From UHGV virus genome UHGV-0185805: a DNA stretch of 17,212 nucleotides; one strand, given 5' to 3'. The notes under the pieces are model-generated. The model ran no database searches. It saw only the letters and a program-made list of their open reading frames with translations, and was not told the DNA's origin. The translations under genes were made by a program, and so were the position numbers. Shown piece after piece: positions 1 to 14,169 of this stretch. Each line of letters begins with the position of its first letter. Within the stretch, counting starts at the first letter, position 1. Source of the DNA: a virus.

Positions 1-1230
1 CCACATGCGGTTGTAGTTAGTGTCATTCAGATTGCGCTGTATTTCGTCGTTATCATCTACGCTGCCGGTATTACCCGCAAACGGACGATTAGAGATCACC
101 GCATCGGCCCACGGTTTAGCCGTGTTAAAACCTTCGTTGATGGCGCTATCACGGATCACCACCTGACCGTTGGTATTGGCATCAACATCCAGCGAGCGGC
201 CCAGTTGCGCCACACCATCACCGAAAGCATTGAAACGGCTGTTTACGGCGAGGAAACCGTAGTAAATGTTGGACAGCGTAGCCGGTGCAAACACATACGC
301 TTCTTGCTGAGTACGTGAGTTCACCACGCGGAATTCGGTGTTATCGAACACCACTGCGCCGCGACCAGAAACGATATCCACATCCCCTTCAATGTAGCTG
401 TTGGTCACCAGCGTACGCGGCTGACGATTCGTTTCCAGACGGTTCTGCACACCGCTGTTGGTGACAAAGAAGGTGTTCTGACGACCGAGAATGTTAACGT
501 TGTTAATCTGTACCTGGTCACCATCAGTACGCAGTGCCACCGCCGGATGGTTACCTGCATCTACGCTATCGCCCAGCGTGTTTTCGATGGTCAGATTTTG
601 CAGTTGCAGGCCATTGTTTTGTGACCAGAAGACCGCAGAGCAGAGAACACCGATACTGTCGCTGCGTTTGCTCTGGCAGCTATCGTACATATACCACGCT
701 GGTTTACCTGGCATATATTTGCCGCGCGGGTTGACGTCGTGACGCCAGTCGGCAGGGCTCATGCCACCATCAAGGGAAAGCCCAATCTTCACATCAATCG
801 GTTTTTCACCTGTACCGTACAGAGTAATTCCACCCGGAGCGGCAGGGACATATACCGTTCCCTGATACTCACCAGGCATCACGGCAATATACTGGCGCTT
901 GTTGGTACGCTTGATAATTGCCGCATCTACCGCCGCCTGAATCGTGGTATGCGTTACACCTTGAGTGCCCGCCGGGCCGACAACAAAGTCAGGTTGCGCA
1001 GGCAGGGTAATCGGGGAAGGATTCCACGCTGCAGCACCTGGTGTCAGGGATGCAAAATAGTGTTGAGCATCGAAATTCTGCGCTTCTTTTGCCGACAGAA
1101 TCGGGCGAGAAGAGGTACCAGGCGCGGTTTGATCAGAAGGACGTTGATCGGGCGGGGTTGAGCTACAGGCGGTCAGCGTCACGCCAAAAGCCAATGCCAG
1201 CGCCAGACGGGAAACTGAAAATGTGTTCAC
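1..1230 (-). CDS. ybhC: YbhC-like outer-membrane lipoprotein (pectinesterase-fold); 3' end of gene lies beyond window start; GTG start at 1228-1230
   Basis: Minus-strand translation from GTG (RBS GGAG upstream) reads VNTFSVSRLALALAFGVTLTACSS... (signal peptide plus lipobox LTAC) and stays open to position 1, ending ...NYNRMW in frame. Matches YbhC as remembered; no search run. Not in the ORF track because it runs off the window edge. Confidence 0.85.
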   Translation of the reverse strand, partial: MNTFSVSRLALALAFGVTLTACSSTPPDQRPSDQTAPGTSSRPILSAKEAQNFDAQHYFASLTPGAAAWNPSPITLPAQPDFVVGPAGTQGVTHTTIQAAVDAAIIKRTNKRQYIAVMPGEYQGTVYVPAAPGGITLYGTGEKPIDVKIGLSLDGGMSPADWRHDVNPRGKYMPGKPAWYMYDSCQSKRSDSIGVLCSAVFWSQNNGLQLQNLTIENTLGDSVDAGNHPAVALRTDGDQVQINNVNILGRQNTFFVTNSGVQNRLETNRQPRTLVTNSYIEGDVDIVSGRGAVVFDNTEFRVVNSRTQQEAYVFAPATLSNIYYGFLAVNSRFNAFGDGVAQLGRSLDVDANTNGQVVIRDSAINEGFNTAKPWADAVISNRPFAGNTGSVDDNDEIQRNLNDTNYNRMW

Positions 1231-1265
1231 AGGTTGCTCCGGGCTATGAAATAGAAAAATGAATC

Positions 1266-1364
1266 CGTTGAAGCCTGCTTTTTTATACTAAGTTGGCATT
1301 ATAAAAAAGCATTGCTTATCAATTTGTTGCAACGAACAGGTCACTATCAGTCAAAATAAAATCA
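1266..1364. other. attL (B-O-P') of lambda-type site-specific recombination; 15-bp core GCTTTTTTATACTAA at 1277-1291, P' arm 1292-1364
   Basis: Sequence gaagcctGCTTTTTTATACTAAgttggcattataaaaaagcattgcttatcaatttgttgcaacgaacaggtcactatcagtcaaaataaaatcattatttg reads as bacterial B arm, core, then lambda P' arm running into the 3' end of int, as remembered from lambda attP. Confidence 0.85.
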
Positions 1365-1973
1365 TTATTTGATTTCAATTTTGTCCCACTCCCTGCCTCT
1401 GTCATCACGATACTGTGATGCCATGGTGTCCGACTTATGCCCGAGAAGATGTTGAGCAAACTTATCGCTTATCTGCTTCTCATAGAGTCTTGCAGACAAA
1501 CTGCGCAACTCGTGAAAGGTAGGCGGATCCCCTTCGAAGGAAAGACCTGATGCTTTTCGTGCGCGCATAAAATACCTTGATACTGTGCCGGATGAAAGCG
1601 GTTCACGACGAGTAGATGCAATTATGGTTTCTCCGCCAAGAATCTCTTTGCATTTATCAAGTGTTTCCTTCATTGATATCCCGAGAGCATCAACATGCAA
1701 TGTTGTTGGGATGGCAATTTTTACGCCTGTTTTGCTTTGCTCGACATAAAGATATCCATCTACGATATCAGACCACTTCATTTCGCATAAATCACCAACT
1801 CGCTGCCCGGTAACAACAGCCAGTTCCATTGCAAGTCTGAGCCAACATGGTGATGATTCTGCTGCTTGATAAATTTTCAGGTATTCGTCAGCCGTAAGTC
1901 TTGATCTCCTTACCTCTGATTTTGCTGCGCGAGTGGCAGCGACAGGGTTTGTTGTTATATGGCCTTGTCGCCG
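1365..1973 (-). pseudogene. int: Lambda-type integrase fragment: C-terminal ~202 codons (catalytic domain) only; N-terminal arm-binding and most of core-binding domain absent; in-frame TAG at 1974-1976
   Basis: ORF 1365-1829 (MELAVVTGQRVGDLCEMKWSDIVDGYLYVEQSKTG...DDRGREWDKIEIK) matches the lambda Int C-terminus as remembered. In-frame homology (..GHITTNPVAATRAAKSEVRRSRLTADEYLKIYQAAESSPCWLRLA) extends 48 codons upstream to a TAG stop with no start codon. Catalytic residues (R in TGQR, HELR, GH, SQY) are retained. Confidence 0.85.
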
Positions 1974-2036
1974 CTACTTCGCGCAAGAAATCGACTTCCC
2001 ATTTCTCCCATGGAGTCTTTTTCATAGGCGATACCG

Positions 2037-2525
2037 TTATTTGATAAGAAGTGAAGGTTTCCCAACTTTGAGTTGAGCGCCGGGGATATTTATTCCTGCT
2101 TTTAGTTGGTGTTTGATTGCCAGTTTGTCGGCTTTAATTGTTGTTTCAAACTCAACGTATTCAGGAGGAAGGGCGCTTGAGTCGATTATTTCTACAATTT
2201 CTGACGGTTTGCGGATTGTTACCTGGTGAATACCTGCTCTAATCTTTTTCTTGCCTACCATTTCAAGCGATGACGCTATATATGATATGATGCTGTCAAT
2301 CTTATTTTGAATTACTGCGGCTCGCTCATTCAGTGACTTTGCCTCTTCCTTGAGGCGTTCAGCATAACCAGATTCATTTTTAATGACGGAAAGAAGTTGC
2401 TCTATTTTATCGGTAAATTCTCCTTCCATGCCTTCTATTGTGTCAGCAATCATCTCTGGCTCTAAATCTGAATCCATCAATTTTGCGTATTCATTGGCTA
2501 TTTCATATAGTTTACTCACTGGCAA
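2037..2525 (-). CDS. Phage Gp157-like protein (family commonly found beside RecT/ERF recombinases)
   Basis: 162-aa acidic helical ORF (MPVSKLYEIANEYAKLMDSDLEPEM...) immediately downstream of the RecT-like gene on the same strand. Family assignment is from memory of the Sipho_Gp157 pattern and synteny, not from a search. Confidence 0.5.
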   Translation of the reverse strand: MPVSKLYEIANEYAKLMDSDLEPEMIADTIEGMEGEFTDKIEQLLSVIKNESGYAERLKEEAKSLNERAAVIQNKIDSIISYIASSLEMVGKKKIRAGIHQVTIRKPSEIVEIIDSSALPPEYVEFETTIKADKLAIKHQLKAGINIPGAQLKVGKPSLLIK

Positions 2526-3168
2526 CCTCCAGTTTCGCTTTGCATTCTATGTAAATGGCTTGTACGTTATGCTGCAATTTCATTCCAGATGTCAGGCGAT
2601 ATGCTTCTGCAAAATATCGCTTCAAATCATCCATGTTTTCTGCCTGAGCCATTTCATCACAAAGAAGTTGTGCTTTATCCGTTATTTCCTGCTGGCGTTT
2701 CCGTTCATCTTCGCGGATATCTTCCTCTGATTTGTACGGCATAACTGGTTCAGTCCATACACCTTCTTCTTCGTTTAGTACGTGAATAGCACTATCAAGA
2801 CGTGATGCCTTAGGCCAATACTTGCTTGCACGCTTTACGACCGTCTTTCGCGCCATCTCATTCCAGTGATTTACCCATGGTCCTTTATCGCTGAATGCCG
2901 CCTTGCTTGTTTTCCTTACAGCCTCAATTTCAGCCAGACTCATCTCTTCCGTTAGATAATCACCTGCTGGCGTCTTAACTGTGCAGTAAACGCCAACGAT
3001 ATCACCACGATCACCGAAGGCGTTGTATTTATGGGTTGGTGCTTTATCAAGCCCGTTTGACTCATAGGTATCGTTAGCATGAACAAGTTTTGCCTGACCC
3101 CATGAGATAACACCAGACTCCATTGCAATATGGAGCAATCCCATATAACTGATATCAAGGCAAACCAT
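2512..3168 (-). CDS. recT: RecT-family single-strand annealing recombinase, N-terminally truncated; homology continues upstream to ~3255-3300 with no start codon
   Basis: ORF contains ...GPWVNHWNEMARKTVVKRASKYWP..., comparable to Rac RecT ...GPWVTHWEEMAKKTAIRRLFKYLP... as remembered. Reading upstream in frame gives ...AIINVAAIGITLNPASKLAYLVPRDG (RecT-like) back to a stop at 3301-3303 with no ATG/GTG/TTG, so roughly the first 70 residues of a normal RecT are missing. Confidence 0.7.
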   Translation of the reverse strand: MVCLDISYMGLLHIAMESGVISWGQAKLVHANDTYESNGLDKAPTHKYNAFGDRGDIVGVYCTVKTPAGDYLTEEMSLAEIEAVRKTSKAAFSDKGPWVNHWNEMARKTVVKRASKYWPKASRLDSAIHVLNEEEGVWTEPVMPYKSEEDIREDERKRQQEITDKAQLLCDEMAQAENMDDLKRYFAEAYRLTSGMKLQHNVQAIYIECKAKLEVASE

Positions 3169-3209
3169 GCCGTCGCGCGGAACTAGATAAGCAAGTTTGC
3201 TGGCCGGGT

Positions 3210-3377
3210 TTAAGGTGATGCCGATCGCCGCAACATTGATGATGGCGTAGGGCGGTGTAATACTTCTGAACTTATTGCTTCTTCGCGGGCCAGTACGCCG
3301 TTAGCTAATGCCTTTGCCTTTAAACGCTCACGACGACGAGAACGTGAATTGCCTTTGAACTGAGTTCTGCGTGTCAT
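3210..3377 (-). CDS. N: N-like transcription antiterminator, P22-type arginine-rich motif, truncated (55 codons, 3' part reads out of frame through RecT-derived DNA)
   Basis: First gene downstream of PL on the minus strand, RBS AGGAGG then ATG at 3375-3377: MTRRTQFKGNSRSRRRERLKAKALANGV... resembles the P22 N arginine-rich boxB-binding peptide (GNAKTRRHERRRKLAIER, from memory). A P22-type boxB hairpin lies in its leader. Normal N proteins are about 100 aa. Confidence 0.55.
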   Translation of the reverse strand: MTRRTQFKGNSRSRRRERLKAKALANGVLAREEAISSEVLHRPTPSSMLRRSASP

Positions 3378-3505
3378 ATAGACCTCCTGGTGAACTTTGG
3401 CGGTGAATACAGCCGGGCGACTAACTCCGGTAGCGTAATCATTGCAAAGCGCCTCCGCCGAGAAGGTTAGCTTCTGCATTCACCCCAAAGTTCACTTTGG
3501 TTATT

Positions 3506-3520
3506 GCGCTTTGTCAGCGC
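3506..3520 (-). promoter_or_regulatory. nutL boxB hairpin, P22 type (GCGCUGACAAAGCGC on the leftward transcript)
   Basis: Reverse complement of 3506-3520 is GCGCTGACAAAGCGC: 5-bp stem with GACAA pentaloop, between PL and the N-like start. Matches P22 boxB as remembered. Confidence 0.6.
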
Positions 3521-3578
3521 CGTAGATTCATATTTGAATCGTTGTATATTCACCGCCCTGGTGAGTAGTGCGTCCTGC

Positions 3579-3641
3579 TGATGTGTTTAGTATCACCGCC
3601 AGTGGTATTTATGTCAACACCGCTAGAGATAATTCATCACC
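3579..3641 (-). promoter_or_regulatory. Lambda-type OL1/OL2/OL3 operators with PL promoter (-10 GATACT at 3579-3584, -35 TTGACA at 3602-3607 on minus strand)
   Basis: OL1 TATCACCGCCAGTGGTA 3581-3597; OL2 CAACACCGCTAGAGATA 3605-3621; OL3 CATCACCGCAGATGGTT 3625-3641. 17-nt spacer between -35 and -10. Confidence 0.85.
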
Positions 3642-3802
3642 GCAGATGGTTATCTGTATGTTTTTTATATGAATTTATTTTTTGCAGGGGTGCATTGTTT
3701 GGTAGGTGAGAGATCTGAACTGCTATGTTTAGTGAGTTGTATCTATTTATTTTCAAATAGATACAATTGGTTATGTGTTCTTGGGTGAGGGGGATCGTGA
3801 GG

Positions 3803-3829
3803 CAAAGAAAACCCGGCTCTGTGGCCGGG
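3803..3829 (-). terminator. Rho-independent terminator at the end of the cI (PRM) operon, lambda t_imm-like
   Basis: Stem CCCGGC (3812-3817) / GCCGGG (3824-3829), 6-nt loop, followed on the minus strand by TTTTCTTTG; lies just after the stop of the ORF ending at 3838. Confidence 0.7.
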
Positions 3830-3837
3830 AATAACAT

Positions 3838-4216
3838 TTAGGAATCAAGGTCAGGTAGCATGATTTTCTCAATCAACGTCAATGCCCTTTGGTCTCGTTC
3901 AGCAAAATATTTAGGAGCGTACTGAGGCAGCCACACTTCGTTGAAGTATTGTTTGAAATCTGCAATATTCGTTTGGGTATAGACGTACCGGGAATGTCCG
4001 GCCATCTGGGTACTCATGGTTATATGTTGGGAATGTCTTCGGCTCAACCCCCCGGTTGTCACGGAGCCATTGCGAGAAAACCCTACCCTCTGAAATATCA
4101 GGGACCATTTTTTCTGGCAGCGTATATCCGGCCTGTTCAAGTGGCGCAACCAAGTTAAACGTCAGTTCATTAAGCATAGAAAAGTGCGTATGAGGAACTC
4201 TGCCTCGGTTTGTCAT
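3838..4216 (-). pseudogene. Hypothetical protein in the rexAB position, apparently disrupted by a -1 frameshift near 3985-4000 (ORF 3911-4216 carries the N-terminal part, ORF 3838-4149 the C-terminal part)
   Basis: Two overlapping minus-strand ORFs in different frames. 3911-4216 starts protein-like (MTNRGRVPHTHFSMLNELTFNLVAPLEQAGYTLPEKMVPDISEGRVFSQWLRDNRGVEPKTFPTYNHEYPDGR...) but ends Arg/Ser-rich. 3838-4149 starts junk-like but ends protein-like (...YVYTQTNIADFKQYFNEVWLPQYAPKYFAERDQRALTLIEKIMLPDLDS) right before the terminator. No family recognised. Confidence 0.45.
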
Positions 4217-4255
4217 ATACCGCTTAAGGTGGATAGGGAGTTCGGCAGGCGCTCT

Positions 4256-4597
4256 TTAACCTGACATCCACTCACGCACCCATCTCGATACTTGCACTGC
4301 AAATTTTGGAGATAGCCACTGAGCTAAATTAATTGCGATGTCTGGATGAACCCAAGTCCCTTGATTCTCTGCTCTTCCGCCTTTAAATGATTGAATTAAC
4401 TCCGATATGGGAATCCCCATATCGCGTGATAATTCATCAAAAAAATCTTGTGTTGTTTTTAGTCGTGTATAGTCAGCAAGTAGCTTCCCCGCAGACTTGC
4501 ACATCGCGGTGGCATTGATGTATCCGTCTTTGGTGCGAAGATGGATGACTTCTCCATCAACTTCTCTAGCGATTAATGCAAGTTGAAATTGTGTCAT
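4256..4597 (-). CDS. KilA-N domain protein (stand-alone, 113 aa) immediately downstream of cI
   Basis: ...DGYINATAMCKSAGKLLADYTRLKTTQDFFDEL...WVHPDIAINLAQWLSPKFAVQVSRWVREW fits the KilA-N/Bro-N signature as remembered. AGGA RBS 6 nt upstream of ATG; 31-nt gap after the cI stop. Confidence 0.75.
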   Translation of the reverse strand: MTQFQLALIAREVDGEVIHLRTKDGYINATAMCKSAGKLLADYTRLKTTQDFFDELSRDMGIPISELIQSFKGGRAENQGTWVHPDIAINLAQWLSPKFAVQVSRWVREWMSG

Positions 4598-4628
4598 AAA
4601 TCATCCTATTACGTGAAAAATAAAACAA

Positions 4629-5345
<717 letters not shown>

Positions 5346-5352
5346 TTAAATC

Positions 5353-5418
5353 TATCACCGCAAGGGATAAACTTCTAACACCGTGCGTGTTGACTATTTT
5401 ACCTCTAGCGGTGATAAT
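5353..5418. promoter_or_regulatory. Lambda-type OR3/OR2/OR1 operators with divergent PRM and PR promoters
   Basis: OR3 TATCACCGCAAGGGATA 5353-5369; OR2 TAACACCGTGCGTGTTG 5376-5392; OR1 TACCTCTAGCGGTGATA 5400-5416; PR -35 TTGACT 5390-5395 and -10 GATAAT 5413-5418; RBS TAAGGAGG before cro ATG at 5443. Confidence 0.9.
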
Positions 5419-5442
5419 GGTTGCCTGTACTAAGGAGGTTGT

Positions 5443-5643
5443 ATGGAACAACGCATAACCCTGAAAGATTATGCAATACGCTTTGGGCAAACCAAGACGG
5501 CTAAAGATCTCGGCGTATATCAAAGCGCGATTAACAAGGCCATTCATGCAGGCCGAAAGATTTTTTTAACTATAAACGCTGATGGAAGCGTTTATGCGGA
5601 AGAAATAAAGCCCTTCCCAAGTAACAAAAAAACAACTGCATAA
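5443..5643 (+). CDS. cro: Cro repressor (lambda type, 66 aa)
   Basis: [66 protein letters not shown], two substitutions relative to lambda Cro as remembered. Confidence 0.95.
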
Positions 5644-5650
5644 GTAACAC

Positions 5651-5696
5651 CGCTCTTTTCACAATGGACATTCGTCCTACGTCGCTGACAAAGCGA
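5651..5696 (+). promoter_or_regulatory. nutR: boxA-like CGCTCTTTT (5651-5659) and P22-type boxB hairpin TCGCTGACAAAGCGA (5682-5696)
   Basis: Located between cro and the cII-like gene, where nutR sits in lambdoid phages. The boxB loop (GACAA) is the same type as nutL. A hairpin ATGCGT-TTCC-ACGCAT at 5727-5742 may be a tR1-like structure. Confidence 0.55.
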
Positions 5697-5780
5697 GCCC
5701 CAAGATATCTGACCAACTAAGGCCATATGCGTTTCCACGCATACCTTTCAACTAACTATTCACTATTGGAAAATTAACAA

Positions 5781-6077
5781 ATGACACAAGCAAGTTATAG
5801 CAAGCCAACACAGCGAGAAATTGATCGCGCTGAAACTGATTTACTCATCAACCTGTCAACGCTTACCCAGCGCGGTCTGGCAAAGATGATTGGCTGTCAT
5901 GAATCGAAGATAAGCAGAACGGACTGGAGGTTTATTGCTTCGGTCTTGTGTGCTTTCGGAATGGCATCAGACATCAGTCCGATTAGCAGGGCTTTTAAGT
6001 ATGCATTGGATGGAATCACAAAGAAAAAATCCCCGGCCGCCACCGAGGATTTTAAGCAAATTGATATGCAATTCTGA
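5781..6077 (+). CDS. cII: CII-like transcriptional activator (98 aa), diverged from lambda CII
   Basis: Position after cro/nutR; C-terminus KKKSPAATEDFKQIDMQF parallels lambda CII NKKRPAATERSEQIQMEF (from memory); central HTH-like segment ...GCHESKISR.... Confidence 0.7.
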   Translation: MTQASYSKPTQREIDRAETDLLINLSTLTQRGLAKMIGCHESKISRTDWRFIASVLCAFGMASDISPISRAFKYALDGITKKKSPAATEDFKQIDMQF

Positions 6078-6109
6078 GGTCATTACTGGATCAATCTACA
6101 GGAGTAATT

Positions 6110-6271
6110 ATGACAAAACGTCGTAAGAAATACCAGGAAAAAGAAGAGATTCGACACCCTGATTCACCTGAGGGATTAGTGGTAGCCGCAGCAAATAACA
6201 GGGCGTTCGCAGAGCGCCTTGTTGGTGTTTACAGACTAGCCAAAGTAGGAGTGAAACATGGGCGTCGTTAA
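6110..6271 (+). CDS. Small hypothetical basic protein (53 aa) with strong RBS, unknown function
   Basis: AGGAG 7 nt upstream of ATG at 6110; MTKRRKKYQEKEEIRHPDSPEGLVVAAANNRAFAERLVGVYRLAKVGVKHGRR; stop at 6269-6271, 1 nt from the converging Q fragment stop. Below the ORF-track length cutoff. Confidence 0.3.
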   Translation: MTKRRKKYQEKEEIRHPDSPEGLVVAAANNRAFAERLVGVYRLAKVGVKHGRR

Positions 6272-6272
6272 G

Positions 6273-6752
6273 TTAGCTGATTGCTGGCATTCTTGAATAG
6301 CCGACACCTTTGCATCTTCCGCACTCTTTCTCAACAACTCTCCCCCACTGCTCCGTTTTGGCTATATCAACCGCACGGCCTGTACCGTGGCAATCTCTGC
6401 ATCTTGCACCCGGCGTCGCGGCACTACGGCAATAATCCGCATAAGCGAATATTGCGAGCACTTGCAGTACCTTTGCCTTAGTATTTCCTTCGAGCTTTGC
6501 CACACCACGGTATTTCCCCGATACCTTGTGTGCAAATTGCATCAGATAGTTGATAGCCTTTTGTTTGTCGTTCTGGCTGAGTTCGTGCTTACCGCAAAAT
6601 GCAGCCATCCCGAATCCGGCCTGTGATTGTGCCATCCCCATAGCAGCCATCACATCAGTACCGGAAAGAGAGTCAGAAGCTGTAGCCCGTGGTGAGTCGC
6701 TAATCATCGGGCTTTTTGGCGAATGAAATTTAGCTACGCTTTCGAGTCTCAT
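6273..6752 (-). CDS. Q: Antitermination protein Q, lambda type, C-terminally truncated (159 of ~207 aa), inverted relative to PR
   Basis: MRLESVAKFHSPKSPMISDSPRATASDSLSGTDVMAAMGMAQSQAGFGMAAFCGKHELSQNDKQKAINYLMQFAHKVSGKYRG...CRDCHGTGRAV...CGRCKGVGYSRMP matches the lambda Q N-terminal region including the zinc-binding cysteines as remembered; the ORF then hits a stop where lambda Q continues. Confidence 0.8.
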   Translation of the reverse strand: MRLESVAKFHSPKSPMISDSPRATASDSLSGTDVMAAMGMAQSQAGFGMAAFCGKHELSQNDKQKAINYLMQFAHKVSGKYRGVAKLEGNTKAKVLQVLAIFAYADYCRSAATPGARCRDCHGTGRAVDIAKTEQWGRVVEKECGRCKGVGYSRMPAIS

Positions 6753-7800
6753 GCGCCTTCTCCCTGTAATCGACCAGAATCATGCCAACACATCCTTTTT
6801 CTCGCTTGATTCGACGACTTTCGCTGACGATTTGAGCCAGAGATAATCCCGGCGTGTCGTCGATGTAAAGCAGGTCGATTTCACTCAAGCGATTGGCTGT
6901 TTCGATCGCCCTGTTGAAGTCACCATCGTAATCACCCTGATAGCCGTCATCAGCGTCATTTGTCGCCGGAAGGTAAAAAATATTCGGGTTAACACCAGAC
7001 TTCTGCCCTACCAGTTTTTCCAGTATCTGGTCACCTGGCATTTCAAGGCTGAACATCAGAGCGGGCTTTTTCTCATGCACTGCGCAGTTGATTGCCATCT
7101 GGCTGTATAGCGTCGTTTTCCCCATCTTAGGGCGAGCGCCAATGACAAACAGAGAGCCTTTCACCAGACCTTTCGGTGACAGCATCCTGTCCAGCGATGG
7201 GATCCCTGTGCTCATTCCTCGTTGTTCGCCTGACGGGTCAAATCGCTTCTCAAGGTCGCTAACCCAGTCTTCCATGACCTCACCAAATGAACGAAGGCCG
7301 CGACGCGATCCGGTTTTTGCATGGTCTGTCAGTTGCGTGAAAATCGACTGAATAGCTTCGTACTTCTGCGTTGCAGTCATTCCGTTGCGGGAATAGAGCA
7401 ATTCCGTCGCTTCAGTCATACGGTTGATGGCGTAGCGTTCCATTGCGGTTTCACGAACCTGCATTGCATAGGCAACGATGTTTGCTGCGCTTGGCGTGTT
7501 CTTTGCGATCTCAGCGATATAAGCAAAACCGCCAACAGACACAGTTAACGATTTACGCTCCAGTTCATCGAAAAGCGTCAGGCCATCTACTGGCTTTTGC
7601 TCCCGGTGCATTCTGGTTATTTCTTCGAAAAGGATTTTGTGTGGCCGGCTGTAAAATGAATCAGGCTTCAGCATCGCCAGAACCTTCTGGACGCGCTCAC
7701 TGCTGTCATCATCCAGAAGCAATCCACCAATCACCGCCTGCTCTGCCTCGATGCTATGGGGCGGCGCATAAAAATTATCGGTCATCGTGTTCACCCTCAC
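6730..7800 (-). CDS. DnaB-family replicative helicase (P22 gp12-like), C-terminally truncated at ~356 aa and abutting the Q start
   Basis: N-terminal DnaB signature SIEAEQAVIGGLLLD and Walker A GARPKMGKTT present; ORF ends ...GMILVDYREKAHETRKRS* just after the helicase motif where DnaB proteins normally continue ~100 aa; its stop overlaps the Q ATG. Confidence 0.75.
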   Translation of the reverse strand: MRVNTMTDNFYAPPHSIEAEQAVIGGLLLDDDSSERVQKVLAMLKPDSFYSRPHKILFEEITRMHREQKPVDGLTLFDELERKSLTVSVGGFAYIAEIAKNTPSAANIVAYAMQVRETAMERYAINRMTEATELLYSRNGMTATQKYEAIQSIFTQLTDHAKTGSRRGLRSFGEVMEDWVSDLEKRFDPSGEQRGMSTGIPSLDRMLSPKGLVKGSLFVIGARPKMGKTTLYSQMAINCAVHEKKPALMFSLEMPGDQILEKLVGQKSGVNPNIFYLPATNDADDGYQGDYDGDFNRAIETANRLSEIDLLYIDDTPGLSLAQIVSESRRIKREKGCVGMILVDYREKAHETRKRS

Positions 7801-8293
7801 GAACTTTCAGGTAGGTATTATCGTTAAGCAGGAAATCAAATCCCTTTTTGTGCCAGACAGTTCCGCGTTGATGGTTTGGACGCTCTTCGAACATCCATCG
7901 GCAATTTTCGCCTACGTAGCTCAAATAATTTCTCCAGTCCTGCATCGTGAACCCATGCCCGTCAAGCTGGCGGGTTATCACTCCGGCTTTGCGCCAGAAC
8001 GTTCGGATCTGGTTTTTACGCTTGTCATTCAGTGCGCGGATTCTTGGCGCTTCAGGAAGGATTTCGTGGTAAGCATCGACAACATCCTGACAGCTGACGG
8101 AAGGTTTTTTCTTGTCAGACTTTTTGTCTGCTGTAGCACTCTCTAATACGTCAGTATTAGAGATATTATTTATATTATTGTTTATGGACAACCGTTGGAC
8201 AATTTTTTGCCTGAAAATCGTCATATTTAACGATTGTAAACAGGCTAAATTTCTTCCCCATCGAGCAAATATTAAGCATACCTTTCGACTCAA
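7775..8293 (-). CDS. Replication initiator (O-like) linker and C-terminal part, in a different frame from the upstream N-terminal ORF (frameshifted single gene or two genes)
   Basis: ORF spans the AT-rich palindromic ori-like DNA (translated as ...SINNNINNISNTDVLES...) and ends overlapping the helicase start, as O-type genes do. Confidence 0.45.
   Translation of the reverse strand: MSRKVCLIFARWGRNLACLQSLNMTIFRQKIVQRLSINNNINNISNTDVLESATADKKSDKKKPSVSCQDVVDAYHEILPEAPRIRALNDKRKNQIRTFWRKAGVITRQLDGHGFTMQDWRNYLSYVGENCRWMFEERPNHQRGTVWHKKGFDFLLNDNTYLKVREGEHDDR
8140..8163. repeat. Perfect 10-bp inverted repeat TCTCTAATAC-gtca-GTATTAGAGA flanked by AT-rich DNA; candidate origin element inside the O-like gene
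   Basis: Read directly from the sequence; followed by tattatttatattattgtttat (8164-8186) and a second palindrome AATCGT-n8-ACGATT near 8214-8233. Confidence 0.4.
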
Positions 8294-8525
8294 AAGTCCG
8301 TAATAAGCTCCGAACTTTGTTGTCGGGGATGAATGTTTCTCTGACCAGCGACGGGCGTCCAGTTATCATCTGACCGCGATCAACAGTTATCGGACCGATA
8401 TCCGTATTGACGACAGTAGATTCGTGATTAGCCTTGAGGATTAAGTGAAGCCAAAGATGTACTGCCTGAGAGTCCTTATAGAGCCTGCTGTCCATAAACT
8501 GGCGGTGTATAGAGACATACCCCAT
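8175..8525 (-). CDS. Replication initiator (O-like / P22 gp18-like) N-terminal DNA-binding part
   Basis: MGYVSIHRQFMDSRLYKDSQAVHLWLHLILKANHES... resembles phage replisome-organiser N-terminal domains; directly upstream (same strand) of the helicase. Overlaps the next ORF 8175-8293 in another frame. Confidence 0.55.
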   Translation of the reverse strand: MGYVSIHRQFMDSRLYKDSQAVHLWLHLILKANHESTVVNTDIGPITVDRGQMITGRPSLVRETFIPDNKVRSLLRTFESKGMLNICSMGKKFSLFTIVKYDDFQAKNCPTVVHKQ

Positions 8526-8560
8526 ACTGGATGCCTCCTGATGTTGTACAGGGTTATGCC

Positions 8561-8869
8561 TGTAAACTCAAATCAACAGCCGCCGGACGTTACCAGCTTC
8601 TTTCCCGTTGGTGGGATGCCTACCGTAAGCAGCTTGGACTGAAAGACTTCTCTCCGAAAAGCCAGGACGCTGTGGCACTGCAGCAGATTAAAGAGCGTGG
8701 CGCTTTACCGATGATTGATCGCGGTGATATCCGTCAGGCTATCGACCGTTGCAGTAATATCTGGGCTTCACTGCCGGGCGCTGGTTATGGTCAGTTCGAG
8801 CATAAGGCTGACAGCCTGATTGCAAAATTCAAAGAAGCAGGCGGAACGGTCAGAGAGGTTGAGGTATGA
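8561..8869 (+). pseudogene. R: Endolysin R fragment (lambda-type transglycosylase, C-terminal ~100 codons only)
   Basis: ...[100 protein letters not shown] matches the lambda R C-terminal half as remembered. The N-terminal catalytic part and the holin gene are absent; the ATG at 8531 lies in junction DNA. Confidence 0.85.
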
Positions 8870-10443
8870 GCAAAGTCACCGCGATTATCTCCGCTCTGGT
8901 TATCTGCATCATCGTCTGCCTGTCATGGGCGGTCAATCATTACCGTGATAATGCCATCGCCTACAAAGAGCAGCGTGATAAAAAAGTCAGTGAGCTGAAG
9001 CAGGCGACTGCCACCATTACTGACATGCAGCAGCGCCAGCGTGATGCTGATGCACTCGATGCTAAATACACGAAGGAGTTAGCTGATGCGAAAGCTGAAA
9101 ATGATGCTCTTCGGCGCAAGCTTGATAATGGTGGCAGGGTGCTCGTCAAAGGAAAATGCCCTGTGCCATCCTCAGCCGAAACCTCCAGCGCCTCCGGCAT
9201 GGGCAATGATGCCACCGTCGAACTCTCTCCAGTTGCTGGACGAAACGTTCTCAGTATCAGATCTGGAAATCCAGCGTTTGTTGCACAGGCACAACAGGCG
9301 TTTTCCGGTCTTAATGAGCAGCAACGCAACGATATGGGCGATTTAGCCATGAGGGCTAACGTCGCTCTTTCTCAGGGACCGGAAGCCTACAGTAAATTCA
9401 TTACTGACAACAAGGACAGGTTAAATCGTGTGGGGGCTAATGCTGACTGGATGATTCAGACAGGTATCCAGAATCCAGAGCAGCTATCACACATGCTGAC
9501 TACTATGTCTCTCGGTGCACTTGGGCCAGAAAAGGCGTTTGCTGTTCAGGACAAGATAGCTGGTCGTGAGATTGACCGAGGCAGACTGGCAGAGACAATC
9601 CGCAGCAATCAGGCCAGCGAAGCACTTCAGGCGAGAGGGCAGGATATTAGCCGAGCAAATGCGTTAACGTCAGCATATGCACCAACAGCCGCAATGCAGA
9701 ATTACAATCAGTACGCGCAAATGTTAAAGGCGGATCCAGATGGTGCAGCGGCATTTGCGGCAGCGGCGGGAATTAATCCCAATGCTAAGAAATTACTTAA
9801 GGTTGAAACCAATCCTGATGGCTCGGTAACTAAGTATTACACCGATGGCAGCGAGGAAGCCGGAAAACTAAACCAACCTATATCTGGTGATGGCATTAAA
9901 CCAATTAGTTTGCCACAAGCGCAAAGCATCATAGATAAGGCTAATGAGGGTTCCAAGAAGGCGGCAGGATTTGCTTTGCGATTAAAAGATTCAATGGACT
10001 CAATGAATCAGCTTAGTAAAAGCATTGACCCTAAGCGAGTTGCATTAATAAATCGCTCTCTTGGTGATGGGACTATTGCAAATTTAAGCCTATCACCAGC
10101 GGAGCAGCAATATATGGTAAATGCGAGAGACGCCTTGTATGCAATTTTGCGCCCAGAAACAGGTGCAGCAATTACTCTGCCAGAGATGCAGGAGTATTCC
10201 AAAATGTACCTGCCTCAGCCTGGTGATTCCAAGGCTGCTACTGAAACAAAAATGCGAAAAATGCAGGGCCAATATAACTCATTACGTGGTCAGTCTGGTC
10301 GCGTTTATGATGCTTTGGTGGTTTCAAGTGTTGCAAATAGTCAACAACAGAGCAATAGCCAACAACCGACAAATACCCAACAGCAGCAGAGTCAATCCGG
10401 ATCATATACCTCAAAATCAGGCATTCAATTTACGGTGGAATGA
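8866..10443 (+). CDS. Chimeric ORF: Rz-like spanin 5' part (about first 125-135 codons) fused in frame to the C-terminal ~390 codons of a probable P22 gp20-type ejection protein
   Basis: N-terminus [31 protein letters not shown]...[16 protein letters not shown] matches lambda Rz and overlaps the R stop as in lambda; an Rz1-like lipoprotein ORF is embedded in the +1 frame. The remainder is Ala/Gln-rich and overlaps (ATGATGA) the start of the gp16-like gene. The gp20 assignment is by position, not by remembered sequence. Confidence 0.6.
9086..9346 (+). CDS. Rz1-like outer-membrane lipoprotein spanin embedded in Rz frame +1 (native end probably near 9275; 3' part may be junction-derived)
   Basis: [19 protein letters not shown] (signal peptide plus lipobox) followed by proline-rich [11 protein letters not shown], as in lambda Rz1. 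Confidence 0.5.
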
Positions 10444-12281
10444 TGAAAGTAACTGCAAACGGTAAGACATTTACCTTCCCTGATGGTACGAGCACGGAAG
10501 ATATTGGCACCGCCATTGATGAGTATTTTGCTGGTCAGGCTGTTCAGCAACAAACAGTTAATCAGGCCAATAATGAACCAGCACGTGAAGAACCATCATT
10601 GATGCAACAAGCTGGCGATTGGCTCACAGGTGGTCAAAGTGCAGGGCAAATTGCAGAGCAGGCTGGTCGTGGTCTGGTAAACATACCATTTGACGTATTG
10701 CAGGGCGGCGCAAGTCTGATTAATGCAATCAGTCAGGGGCTTGGTGGACCCAAGGTTTTGGATGATGTTTATCGTCCAGTAGACAGACCGACAGACCCAT
10801 ACGCACAAGCCGGTGAAACAATTGGTGGGTATTTAGTTCCAGGAGTTGGAACGGCAGGAAGCATGGCTATTGGATCACTGGCAGAGGCCGCAAATCAGAA
10901 AGGCGATTTCGCACAAAATGCAGCTAAAAATGCCGGAGTTAACCTTGCCGCTCAGGGGGTTCTTTCCGCAGCAGCAAAGGGAATAGGGCGTGGAATAACG
11001 GCTATAAAAGGTGATATTGCGCCAGAAGTGGCGAAGAAAATTGCCACATCAGAATCGATGGGCGTGACACCAATGACATCTGATGTTATCCCGCCGAAAA
11101 ATGCTTTCACTCGCGGCCTTACTCAGGATGCCGAGGGGGCTTTGCTCGGGACAGGCTCAAAGCGAGCGGAGCAATATGCAACGCGTAGTAAGTTGGTAAG
11201 TAATTATTTTGACCGTTTTGGTGAGTACAACCCGGATGATGTGGTGAAATCTCTGACCACCACGTTAAGGGGACGGAAGGATGCCGCTGGCGCTGTTATC
11301 AATGACGTCACCAATAAAATGGGGAATGCCGCAGTTGATACCACAAACACTATGAATGCTCTGAATACAGCGATCGCAAGACAGGAACGGCTTGGGACGT
11401 CTGCCAATCAAAGCCTGCTTACATCCTTGCGTAACCTACGCGAAGAATTAGCAAACCCTGCAACTGATTTGGATGTTACGTTTGATCTCTTGCGTCAGCA
11501 CAGAACAGCATTTAGATCTAATGTTCAGGGAGATGCTATGGTCTTCCCCAACCAGGCAAAAGCAGCTACCAATATGGTAGAGAATGCAATGTCAAAAGAC
11601 CTTCGTAACGCAGTTGCTAAAAACCTCGGTGCATCAGACGCAGCAAAATACCTTAAAGCAAATTCAGATTATGCAAACGTTTATAATAAGGTGCTTAATA
11701 AAAACATTGCTAACAAGCTCAACAAGGCAAGCAGTGAAGCCAGTCCTGAACTTATAAATACCGTTGTATTAAGCAGAAAACCATCTGACGTGAAACGAAT
11801 CTGGAGCGCATTGGATGATAAAGGGAAAGATGCTATGCGTGCAGCTTACGTCAGCAAAATAGCGGAAAAGGCCGGTGACTCTCCAGCCAAGTTCATCACT
11901 GAAGTTAATAAGCTTAAATCTCAGTCAGGCGGTGAAATTTACAACACTATTTTTTCTGGAAAGCACATGAAAGAGCTCGATGCTCTTCATGAAGTTCTAC
12001 AGCAAACAGCAAGGTCAGACACCGCAAATGTAGTAACTCAGACGGGGCAATCACAAGCCAACAGGATAAGGACGATTGGCGCAACTGCGACTCTTGGAGT
12101 ATCAATGGGGCTTGAGGCTGGTTTTGGTGCAATGATGCGTTTGTATGAGTCCAAAGCAGCAAGGAATGCGCTCTTACGTCTGGCAAACACTAAAGCTGGA
12201 ACGCCAGCTTATGAAAGAGCGCTAAATCAGGCTGCTACTGCCGTGCGCCCGCTCTTAGCTAACGAAGCGACCCGGCAGTAG
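10440..12281 (+). CDS. Probable DNA-ejection (internal virion) protein, P22 gp16-like (613 aa)
   Basis: Size close to P22 gp16 as remembered (~609 aa), Ala/Gly-rich, follows the gp20-like ORF with overlapping start and precedes the sieA-position / mnt-arc-ant / tailspike block as in the P22 map. Assigned by synteny; no search run. Confidence 0.6.
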
Positions 12282-12303
12282 CACTGTAAGCCAAGGACGG
12301 CAT

Positions 12304-12798
12304 TTATTTTATAGTTTTTATGAATTCTTTATTAAATCCCTTAGCTTCTCCGGGGTATCTTCCAAAGACAATTTTTATAAAAACAGAAAAAATAAAGATA
12401 GCAACGCTTAACAACAGTTGCAGTATCATTGGAACCCAAAGAACTACAGGCTCTATATTCATGAAACCAAATATTCTTCCGGCGATCATGGCGAAGTACC
12501 ACACTGTTATCAGCAAACTTAGTGGCATATGAATTACTGATATTACCAATCCAAGAGCATCAGTAATTCTATTTTCAAATTTTTCAGGGGAAAACTTTTC
12601 TTTAAGGTAATTCAGTGCGCAGGCCTCATTCTCTGGATTTTCAGCATTTTTCCCTATAGCAATAGAAATCTCAGATATCCTTGATTCAATTCTTTTGCGT
12701 TTAATAAAACTAGAAAAAAAGAACCACGCAATCTGCAACCCTATCCCCATAAATAGAGTTGCGGCAACTAGCACAGCGTAACTCATAGAATCAGACAC
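12304..12798 (-). CDS. Small inner-membrane protein (about 4 TM helices) in the position of P22 sieA; candidate superinfection-exclusion protein
   Basis: Hydrophobic segments ([25 protein letters not shown]; [31 protein letters not shown]; [30 protein letters not shown]); AT-rich. Start uncertain: GTG at 12796-12798 with GAGG 5 nt upstream, ATG at 12784-12786, or the track start at 12870. Confidence 0.45.
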
Positions 12799-13015
12799 AC
12801 CAACCTCTTTAGTTTTTCTAGTTACTTTGTCACGATAGGATATGCGAATTGATAAAACTAAATTGCGCACATGATAACTCAGTAATAATTGTTAATGAAA
12901 ACATGATCACCTATATTGCACAAGGCGAAACAGGAAGCATAATCTGGTTTCATGAGTGTGATCACGTTTGGGTAAATCAAAGTCAAGAGGAAATACTTGA
13001 AATTATCAAAAATAA

Positions 13016-13597
13016 CTATCTAAACGTTGCACACGACTCATCTATCCATTTTTCATAAAATTGTATACCGAGATAGGCAAGAACAGATGGATGTATATCA
13101 ACAAGCTTTTCGCCAAGATGTTCTGTTGGAGGTGGATAATCTTTTCCTTGGTTTCTTACGGTTATAGGCATAGTTGTTGCTGGATGAAACTCAACTATCA
13201 TAGGGTCGCCTTCGTATTTTGCTATTTTCCCTGTTGAATCAATGATTAACTCTTTAATATAATGGCTTCTTGCTCCCGGAAATGCCCCAAGAGTAGTATA
13301 AGGAGGTTCAAGTTTTGAGATTTCCATAGTGGAATGATGATCAGCATTTCTTGCTTGGTGAAGGTAAGCAAGTGTTTTGTCTGTTTTTCTAAGCATGAAC
13401 TTTTGGTTGAAGTGGCTGCTAAATTTTCCACTAACCGGCTTTGTTGCACAGAGCAACTTACTGAAAGACTTTTCTATATGCCCAAGACATTCTCGCCAGT
13501 GCATTTCAAAATCATCATGGTTTGTAGATGATTTCATCTGCTCTAGGCACTTTTTAGCTGCGATGATTTCTTTTTTTGCTGGGTTGTAATCGATCAT
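13016..13597 (-). CDS. Hypothetical 193-aa protein translationally coupled to mnt (ATGA overlap); possible HEPN-like RNxxxH motif; function unknown
   Basis: ATG at 13595-13597 overlaps the mnt stop (13594-13596); AGGA RBS lies inside the last mnt codons. AT-rich, no family recognised. Contains ...LHQARNADHHS..., which fits the HEPN Rx4-6H pattern but is weak evidence on its own. Confidence 0.6.
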   Translation of the reverse strand: MIDYNPAKKEIIAAKKCLEQMKSSTNHDDFEMHWRECLGHIEKSFSKLLCATKPVSGKFSSHFNQKFMLRKTDKTLAYLHQARNADHHSTMEISKLEPPYTTLGAFPGARSHYIKELIIDSTGKIAKYEGDPMIVEFHPATTMPITVRNQGKDYPPPTEHLGEKLVDIHPSVLAYLGIQFYEKWIDESCATFR

Positions 13598-13848
13598 TTT
13601 GCATCCTTGCCATACATGTTTTTAAGTGTCTCAAATACCACAGACTTGAACTGTTCAGCCTGCATCTCGGCTAATCGTTCAGCTTCATTGCGATAACCTT
13701 TTACAGGAGATGGTCTCGATAGAGCATCTTGGACGATTTGCAACAATTCTGAGTTCATTGATCTACCATTTGACTCTGCTCTGTATTTTAATTTTTCTCT
13801 TACTTCCAAAGGCATGCGGAAGTTAAAGTGCGGATCATCTCTAGCCAT
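13594..13848 (-). CDS. mnt: Mnt repressor (P22 immI maintenance repressor, ribbon-helix-helix)
   Basis: MARDDPHFNFRMPLEVREKLKYRAESNGRSMNSELLQIVQDALSRPSPVKGYRNEAERLAEMQAEQFKSVVFETLKNMYGKDAK is near-identical to P22 Mnt as remembered. It is the 3' 84 codons of track ORF 13594-14244, whose upstream extension is spurious. Confidence 0.85.
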   Translation of the reverse strand: MARDDPHFNFRMPLEVREKLKYRAESNGRSMNSELLQIVQDALSRPSPVKGYRNEAERLAEMQAEQFKSVVFETLKNMYGKDAK

Positions 13849-13870: not shown

Positions 13871-13922
13871 TTGACATGATAGAAGCACTCTACTATATTC
13901 TCAATAGGTCCACCGTGGACCC
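13871..13922. promoter_or_regulatory. immI control region: Pant (-35 TTGACA 13871-13876, -10 TATATT 13894-13899), Arc operator (13876-13896) and Mnt operator GGTCCACCGTGGACC (13907-13921)
   Basis: ATGATAGAAGCACTCTACTAT matches the P22 arc operator as remembered; the symmetric GGTCCACCGTGGACC matches the Mnt operator; arrangement between divergent mnt and arc as in P22. Confidence 0.7.
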
Positions 13923-14100: not shown

Positions 14101-14169
14101 AGTTGAAGCCCCAACTGCGGGAACAGTCAGGGCTTCGATATCGTAAAACCACGCATAGGAATTAACGAC

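Follow-up and report, generated by a model that had tools for sequence, protein, structure and literature searches.

The window analysed here is a 17,212-nucleotide (nt) stretch of viral DNA, the virus genome UHGV-0185805, and the element in question is ORF193, an open reading frame (ORF) for a soluble protein of 193 amino acids (aa) that lies on the minus strand directly behind mnt, the gene of the maintenance repressor in a P22-type E. coli prophage, and ahead of the superinfection exclusion gene sieA. The arrangement of the sequence supports the view that ORF193 is cargo carried in the same transcription unit as mnt and coupled to it at the level of translation. We tentatively suggest, at somewhat less than even confidence, that its product is a stand-alone, soluble, lysogen-expressed HEPN-like nuclease of abortive infection, analogous to HepS of prophage Gifsy-1. 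The suggestion is based on a family-invariant motif, a confidently predicted topology and the genomic context, not on homology to a known family. The gene and the parts of it that matter for this reading are the following (positions are those of the window).

13016-13597, minus strand: ORF193, soluble 193-aa protein, predicted four-helix bundle with a beta insert; PHROG 23516 (unknown function), 7e-120; hypothetical protein WP_000568382.1 of the Prokaryotic Genome Annotation Pipeline (PGAP)
13334-13351, minus strand: codons of R83-N-A-D-H-H88, the family-invariant R-x4-H, present in 141/141 members, at the C-terminal end of helix 74-88
13091-13333, minus strand: codons of residues 89-169, a beta-rich insert that separates helix 3 from the C-terminal helix, with 8 strands within 94-154 in the AlphaFold2 (AF2) model
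13112-13132, minus strand: P-P-x-x-H-L-G loop with the invariant P157 and the near-invariant H160, from conservation counts

The ORF193 family and its HEPN-like motif

ORF193 matched nothing in Pfam, NCBIfam or PADLOC, and PHROGs gave only PHROG 23516, a result that agrees with the preliminary description of this DNA, made from the letters alone, in which no family had been recognised for the 193-aa protein. There was also no match by tblastn in 50,697 GenBank phage records, no paper in the literature mentions WP_000568382, and the protein sequence contains no hydrophobic segment. Only 7 relatives came out of a word-indexed search; a profile search run exhaustively on 1.84 billion cluster representatives gave 1772 with E ≤ 1e-3, of which 1296 had E ≤ 1e-10 (cluster-level counts refer to clusters at 50% identity). 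The relatives are nearly all stand-alone proteins of about 170-220 aa, and they were found in Gamma- and Alphaproteobacteria and in several prophage types. Comparison of the ORF193 alleles of E. coli gave 10 synonymous and 7 non-synonymous differences with an excess at the third codon position. ORF193 is a real, conserved gene under purifying selection.

The family alignment comprised 141 members that were 22-62% identical to ORF193. Four residues (W34, R83, H88 and P157) were invariant in 141/141, and a further eight (L38, R70, D73, L75, L76, Y78, A82 and H160) were conserved in at least 90%. In the preliminary description a HEPN-type RNase had been raised on the strength of one RNADHH stretch, which was called weak by itself, and rightly so: Rx4-6H turns up in 65% of shuffles of ORF193, so that RNADHH is meaningless in a single sequence. 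At the level of the family the lead proved stronger, in that the conserved Rx4-6H of HEPN proteins is represented by R83 and H88 in every one of the members. The residue after the arginine (position 84) was N in 77 members, D in 36, H in 14, G in 13 and S in 1, such that N, D or H, the reported HEPN preference at this place (PMC3710099), accounted for 127/141 (90%).

Structure prediction by AF2 gave a model with a predicted local distance difference test score (pLDDT) of 80 from 8 sequences, and one with a pLDDT of 93.1 and a predicted template modelling score of 0.83 from a 31-sequence alignment. The predicted helices span residues 5-23, 27-58, 61-72 and 74-88, with the motif in the last turns of helix 74-88; they are followed by the strands within 94-154, the P-P-x-x-H-L-G loop and a helix at 170-191. 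In this prediction the motif thus closes helix 3 of a four-helix up-down bundle. Members of the HEPN superfamily, which includes the HepT toxins, AbiV, Csm6/Csx1 and RnlA, frequently have helical inserts between H2 and H3, and Csx1 has a beta-hairpin directly after the motif (Anantharaman et al., PMC3710099). The predicted ORF193 fold resembles them in both respects, with H2 and H3 separated by a helical element and the motif followed by a beta element, and the family shares with them the invariant R-x4-H, the N, D or H after the arginine, and contexts of the conflict type.

Several results weigh against the assignment. The insert is longer than the inserts described for HEPN proteins (up to 60 residues) and the acidic motif of helix 2 is partial: position 42 was E in 80, D in 16 and N in 22 of the 141 members, with K/R at 43 and K at 47, so that an acidic residue is present in only 68% and the distance from it to the basic residue departs from Ex3[KR]. 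Pfam matched 0/141 members and 0/47 cores from which the insert had been removed, NCBIfam matched 0/141, and PADLOC run on the 141 members gave only two marginal RTasHEPN matches (E 0.0019). Profiles of the family, both full-length and insert-less, found only chance matches among PDB sequences (such as radixin and a Rab6-interacting protein), and no profile or hidden Markov model match to the described HEPN families was seen. Foldseek searches of PDB and BFVD with the pLDDT-80 model returned nothing significant, and the fold matches of this model to HEPN proteins were no better than those to unrelated bundles. The invariant W34 and P157, the near-invariant H160 and the 80-residue insert all lie outside canonical HEPN proteins and would also fit, for example, a metal-dependent active site. 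Of the checks proposed in the preliminary description, structure prediction produced the four-helix bundle with the motif ending helix 3, and profile searching did not produce a HEPN match. Membership of the superfamily is only probable, because there is no profile match or significant fold match to a known HEPN family; HEPN-type chemistry for ORF193 is, on the motif and the model, slightly favoured.

The genomic surroundings of the relatives bear on the same question. In enterobacterial prophages the family was found repeatedly in lysogen-expressed positions or in moron positions at prophage ends. One relative (P0136, locus L014) lies just downstream of an S24 CI-type repressor gene and a 65-aa ORF on the same strand, a rex-like position; a second (P0004, 47% identical) lies at the junction of a tailspike-bearing prophage and host genes, a third (P0167) at the end of a P2-like prophage, a fourth (P0168, 53% identical) beside lambda-like tail genes at the end of a prophage of that type and a fifth (P0003) near a tape-measure gene. 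Nine alphaproteobacterial loci (in Methylocystis, Mesorhizobium, Aurantimonas, Sphingomonas and others) had heterogeneous chromosomal surroundings, the neighbours sharing no family and including no phage genes nearby; in these and other chromosomal loci, transposases were seen occasionally and an S24 peptidase once. Across the contexts examined no conserved partner gene was present, which argues that ORF193 is a solo unit. That alphaproteobacterial members sit amid housekeeping genes also means that the family is not exclusively phage-borne, which counts against the proposed reading.

These loci, together with the lack of any profile link to HEPN and the position of P157 and H160 in the insert, outside the HEPN core, fit another explanation, namely that ORF193 is lysogen-expressed cargo that is neither a HEPN RNase nor antiphage. 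Its product could then be another sort of enzyme, such as a metal-dependent hydrolase that works through H88, H160 and acidic residues, or it could play a binding or regulatory part in host physiology or in the prophage cycle. The cargo found in the equivalent position of other prophages (see below) is likewise diverse and not only antiphage, including a Rap1a/Tai immunity protein of the type VI secretion system (T6SS). However, an R-x4-H with N, D or H after the arginine in 90% of the family, lying where helix 3 is predicted to end, corresponds specifically to how HEPN is defined (PMC3710099), and repressor operons and prophage ends, where the family was repeatedly found, are the classic location of exclusion and abortive-infection genes. 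We consider this explanation somewhat unlikely.

If ORF193 is instead a HEPN-like nuclease of abortive infection, Pmnt, the promoter of mnt, would drive its production at a low level in lysogens, where the protein would rest in an inactive state. It would be switched on by some component of the infecting phage, for which the beta insert may be the sensor, and a metal-independent RNase site formed by R83 and H88, perhaps with H160, would then cut tRNA, rRNA or mRNA. Cutting of RNA would abort the infection, and the infected cell would yield no phage. Since SieA blocks the injection of DNA by P22-like phages and ORF193 would act independently of it, the two might form separate layers of prophage-encoded protection.

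A precedent is provided by HepS of the Salmonella prophage Gifsy-1, a partner-less HEPN abortive-infection protein that is non-toxic at rest. It has been shown experimentally that HepS is a tetramer, that siphovirus tail-tip proteins activate it and that it cuts tRNA anticodon loops; HepS was recognised by the same kind of evidence as is available for ORF193 and was then proven (PMC13043305). ORF193 differs from HepS in the insert of about 80 residues after the motif and in the additional W34, P157 and H160, in being translationally coupled to a repressor gene, and in that its family profile has no match to any PDB chain, among which the crystal structure of HepS should be found. No obvious HepS candidate was seen in the LT2 Gifsy-1 record. 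Single-gene HEPN abortive infection on prophages is already established, and ORF193 is probably best read as a new architectural variant of it. Should it be an active solo nuclease, it would add to the antiphage catalogue a large family that is not seen by defence-finder, Pfam or NCBI models, and would be, after HepS, the second HEPN-type effector without a partner whose activity the prophage has to restrain until a foreign phage infects.

A small number of longer fusion proteins occur in the family (P0112, P0076 and P0072), and these could hint at partners or sensors. The N-terminal region of one is weakly like DUF6941 (E 4.5e-4, under the Pfam threshold), another has a Cys-rich, hydrophobic stretch as its N-terminal 200 residues, and another a 95-residue C-terminal extension.

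Coupling of ORF193 to mnt and the slot behind the repressor gene

The sequence upstream of ORF193 contains the elements listed below.

13594-13597, minus strand: ATGA, in which the mnt stop TGA (13596-13594) shares letters with the ORF193 start ATG (13597-13595), read directly
13604-13608, minus strand: AAGGA, Shine-Dalgarno sequence of ORF193 within the last mnt codons, 6 nt before the ATG, read directly
13594-13845, minus strand: mnt, maintenance repressor, 83 aa, ribbon-helix-helix (RHH) protein; Pfam Arc 2.7e-27 and Repressor_Mnt 3.4e-11; 79% identical to P22 Mnt
13876-13904, minus strand: Pmnt, promoter-like site TTGAGA-17-TATCAT, from the promoter scan; faces Pant
13871-13899, plus strand: Pant, from the promoter scan; faces Pmnt
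14101-14168, minus strand: sar antisense RNA, full-length, between arc and ant; Rfam RF00262, 81.8 bits

The start codon of ORF193 overlaps the stop codon of mnt by 4 nt, an overlap that E. coli genome annotations also show and that persists in locus L043, where the Mnt is of another type; in another locus (L032) the relative P0002, 62% identical to ORF193, is overlapped by an 83-aa RHH gene. Upstream, Pmnt and Pant scored 10/12 and 11/12 matches, respectively, and the region of Pmnt, Pant, Oarc and Omnt is 97% identical to the annotated region of P22, from which it follows that the lysogen-expressed logic of P22 should apply to ORF193. The repressor is identified as Mnt in that the protein combines an Arc-like RHH domain with the Mnt C-terminal domain, the divergent Pmnt and Pant are present with their operators, and arc, sar and ant adjoin mnt, the domains of Ant being matched by Pfam. 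With a full-length sar RNA the immI control circuit looks complete, despite the prophage being otherwise deleted. An AT-rich leftward block between the ejection-protein gene and mnt, the ATGA overlap with a ribosome-binding site embedded in mnt, and cargo coupled to the repressor had all been proposed in the preliminary description, and each of these points held: the GC content is 0.34-0.39 over 12250-13600 and 0.43-0.51 in the flanks, and the coupling recurs in other loci. The central base of the Mnt operator palindrome (window position 13915) differs from that of P22, the sequence being GGTCCACCGTGGACC in the window and GGTCCACGGTGGACC in P22.

Expression in the lysogen may nevertheless be conditional. 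The only P22-like E. coli prophage with published RNA-seq is Gally of strain LF82, which lacks ORF193; there the mnt end was not above background in lysogeny broth and rose, 6- to 40-fold, only in macrophages (PMC9928086).

Genes carried on the transcript of a lysogeny repressor, and so made in the lysogen, are known from lambda, where rexAB lies downstream of cI, an arrangement to which genes 44/45 of epsilon34, downstream of the repressor gene of that phage, have been compared (PMC2629481). The relative in locus L014 is in exactly such a position. ORF193 differs in that it rides with the gene of Mnt, the secondary (immI) repressor, and is linked to it at the level of translation, through the ATGA; Rex is a two-protein membrane system of unrelated sequence.

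The position behind mnt was compared in further E. coli P22-like prophages (loci L020, L021 and L035-L037, at the place equivalent to 13016-13597 of the window). The mnt stop was overlapped or abutted by the gene of a Rap1a/Tai family (T6SS-type) immunity protein or of a 178-aa ClpP-like protein; in UTI89 a 199-aa hypothetical protein and a YafO toxin were encoded 42 nt downstream of mnt, and in some prophages the slot was empty. The position behind mnt is thus a slot for interchangeable cargo of benefit to the lysogen. The UTI89 199-aa protein was considered as a relative of ORF193 and ruled out (hhalign probability 0.3%). Mosaicism of the 'ant moron' between gene 16 and the tailspike gene of P22-like phages was described in 2008, its contents in P22 being sieA, hkcC, orf59a, mnt, arc, sar and ant (PMC2629481); in the literature examined on this region the codon-overlapped slot and its contents are not mentioned. 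The region analysed here resembles the P22 moron in place, in flanking genes and in being mosaic with genes of unknown function. It differs in that ORF193 has no relationship to either orf59a (PHROG 3202) or the hkcC-like proteins (PHROG 6823), and in that orf59a lies 99 nt downstream of mnt, whereas ORF193 overlaps the mnt stop codon. In the P22 record BK000583 the plus-strand ORF 2117-2494 (hkcC), between sieA and orf59a, encodes H-E-C-A-H, a motif like HExxH, and in several E. coli prophages the relative place of hkcC is taken by a plus-strand gene for a 139-aa protein of PHROG 6823 (unknown function).

Taken with the family data, the slot admits a broader proposal, which we rate as rather less likely than not: the ORF193 family may be a new single-gene family of antiviral nucleases with a HEPN core and a built-in beta-domain sensor, and the post-mnt slot a translationally coupled hotspot for defence or other cargo in which such genes are swapped. 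ORF193 is a concrete and testable candidate for both a new defence family and a new cargo hotspot, and the codon-overlapped slot could be mined in the way that the P2/P4 hotspots are.

An RHH gene first and a putative toxin second, with a 4-nt overlap, is also the standard layout of type II toxin-antitoxin systems, and the layout recurs with two other RHH proteins (L032 and L043); in addition, the deleted and rearranged prophage of the window has kept the mnt-ORF193 block. It could therefore be supposed that mnt and ORF193 are an addiction pair, in which the RHH protein neutralises a toxic ORF193 or regulates the pair and so stabilises the prophage or its remnant. However, Mnt is a bona fide P22-type repressor with the Mnt C-terminal domain and P22 operators, and closely related mnt genes have an empty slot or unrelated cargo behind them, so the two genes do not obligatorily occur together. 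Moreover, no RHH gene precedes the relatives that lie outside the Mnt-type slot, and among the alphaproteobacterial loci no gene family recurs in the neighbourhood. The addiction pair was rejected as improbable.

The mobile unit, its downstream neighbours and the antisense reading frame

Downstream of ORF193 the minus-strand block continues with a spacer and sieA, and is flanked by the gene 16 homologue; a small ORF runs in the opposite direction through the spacer.

12799-13015, minus strand: 217-nt spacer, through the ribosome-binding site of the third gene; travels with ORF193, from the alignment with P22
12304-12798, minus strand: sieA, superinfection exclusion protein, 164 aa, GTG start at 12798, multi-pass membrane protein; PHROG 7745 SieA-like 8e-107; 151/164 residues identical (92%) to P22 SieA
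10440-12281, plus strand: gene 16 homologue (ejection protein), flanking the three-gene minus-strand block on one side
12849-13058, plus strand: antisense 69-aa ORF with a TTG start (ATG in some alleles), AGGA 8 nt upstream; overlaps the last 43 nt of ORF193

ORF193 was present in 21/5426 complete E. coli genomes at ≥95% nucleotide identity (20 of them at ≥99%), always joined to mnt, and the whole sieA-ORF193-mnt block in only 12 of the 5426. Some E. coli genomes had, after ORF193, a 122-aa PHROG-2651 protein and not sieA, and others had sieA without ORF193. In IMG/VR, ORF193 was found at 99-100% identity in 15 viral contigs, 10 of which were full-length (38-42 kb); the gene downstream of it encoded P22-type SieA in 10, the 122-aa protein in 1 and something else in 4, and those 4 also carried a gene-16 protein that was only 29-31% identical. 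In some ORF193 loci a 130-aa protein was in the place of SieA, and three different non-sieA genes in total were found downstream. On the other side, the Mnt encoded in two of the IMG/VR contigs (loci L043 and L044) was only 33-34% identical to that of the window, with an ORF193 that was 100% identical and the overlap kept. Because ORF193 and the spacer are kept across different Mnt types and different third genes, the sequence comparison indicates that the mobile unit is ORF193 plus spacer, down to the ribosome-binding site of whichever third gene follows.

Alignment with P22 showed that ORF193 and the spacer stand in place of orf59a, the mnt terminator, the plus-strand hkcC and the putative promoter PsieA of P22, and that the sequence becomes homologous to P22 again some 20 nt ahead of the sieA start. 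The spacer was retained alongside different third genes. A site scan of its minus strand detected no terminator-like or promoter-like site, which makes read-through from Pmnt into sieA plausible, and no structured RNA was found in the spacer, its RNA structure being ordinary (z = -0.05).

The third gene of the window had been described in the preliminary account only as a membrane protein in the sieA position. The position was right, but the gene is more than a positional counterpart: by homology and by its place between gene 16 and immI, as in P22, it is sieA itself, with hydrophobic stretches at about residues 5-32, 78-113 and 112-150 of the encoded protein. Two further statements about it had to be corrected, since the start is the GTG at 12798 (164 aa) and not 12870, and since the supposed absence of P22 similarity does not apply to sieA, only ORF193 and the 217-nt spacer being foreign to P22. 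The protein has the same length as P22 SieA, 92% amino acid identity to it and the same place beside gene 16. The difference from P22 is that the putative PsieA is not conserved in the window, as P22 homology begins only some 20 nt before the sieA start codon; sieA may consequently be transcribed by read-through from Pmnt or from a promoter that escaped recognition. Annotation of sieA by PGAP was inconsistent: an extended 188-aa form (GTG at 12870) is used, which elsewhere is named 'superinfection exclusion protein A' and in some genomes is labelled 'hypothetical protein', and the P22 start corresponds to GTG 12798.

It had also been proposed that ORF193 and the membrane protein act together, as effector and membrane partner in an exclusion or defence module of two components. 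The genes lie side by side on one strand, with no terminator or promoter site detected between them, and may be co-transcribed from Pmnt. Against this, it was shown for P22 that SieA is both required for the block on DNA injection by P22-like phages and enough to produce it by itself (Leavitt et al. 2024, PMC10883804). ORF193 and sieA assort independently across prophages, in that ORF193 occurs with three other downstream genes, those of the 122-aa and 130-aa proteins among them, and sieA also occurs without ORF193; the distant relatives of ORF193 have no membrane neighbour either. A module of this kind was rejected as highly improbable. By its sequence the membrane gene is an ordinary P22-type sieA, an independent neighbour of ORF193 that is not to be counted as part of a new system.

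The antisense 69-aa ORF offers a different potential partner, as it was present with ORF193 in all 18 loci. Locus L012, with an ORF193 homologue that is 53% identical, has in the same place and orientation a 65-aa ORF that is 37-40% identical to the 69-aa ORF and has a weak FlbD-like match (E 0.018). With an AGGA 8 nt upstream and an ATG start in some alleles, the small ORF might form with ORF193 a convergent two-gene unit, in which it would act as a small regulator, an antitoxin or a mimic of the trigger. However, each of its 7 polymorphisms in the 18 loci changes an amino acid and none falls at a third codon position, whereas ORF193 has 10 synonymous to 7 non-synonymous differences. It had no homologues beyond the lineages of the window and L012 and no PGAP annotation, and it was missing from the other family loci, where the small ORFs downstream were mutually unrelated except for those of the window and L012. 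Such a unit is very unlikely.

State of the prophage in the window

The remainder of the window (1-10443) is not an intact P22-like prophage but is deleted and rearranged. From the left the gene order is ybhC, integrase, RecT and a lambda-type cI (4629-5342, minus strand), after which come a Q-like antiterminator, a fragment of a DnaB-like helicase and a replication gene on the minus strand (6273-8525). The 6273-8525 segment is inverted relative to cI/cII and has an internal deletion. It is followed by a truncated endolysin gene at 8531-8869 and by a 525-aa ORF (8866-10443), in which a lambda Rz-like N-terminus is joined, from about residue 136, to the gene-20 protein. The head, portal and needle genes are missing from the window. 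This arrangement was found in 0/5426 complete E. coli genomes; in E. coli strain MB53 the same sieA-ORF193-mnt block lies within a normal late operon.

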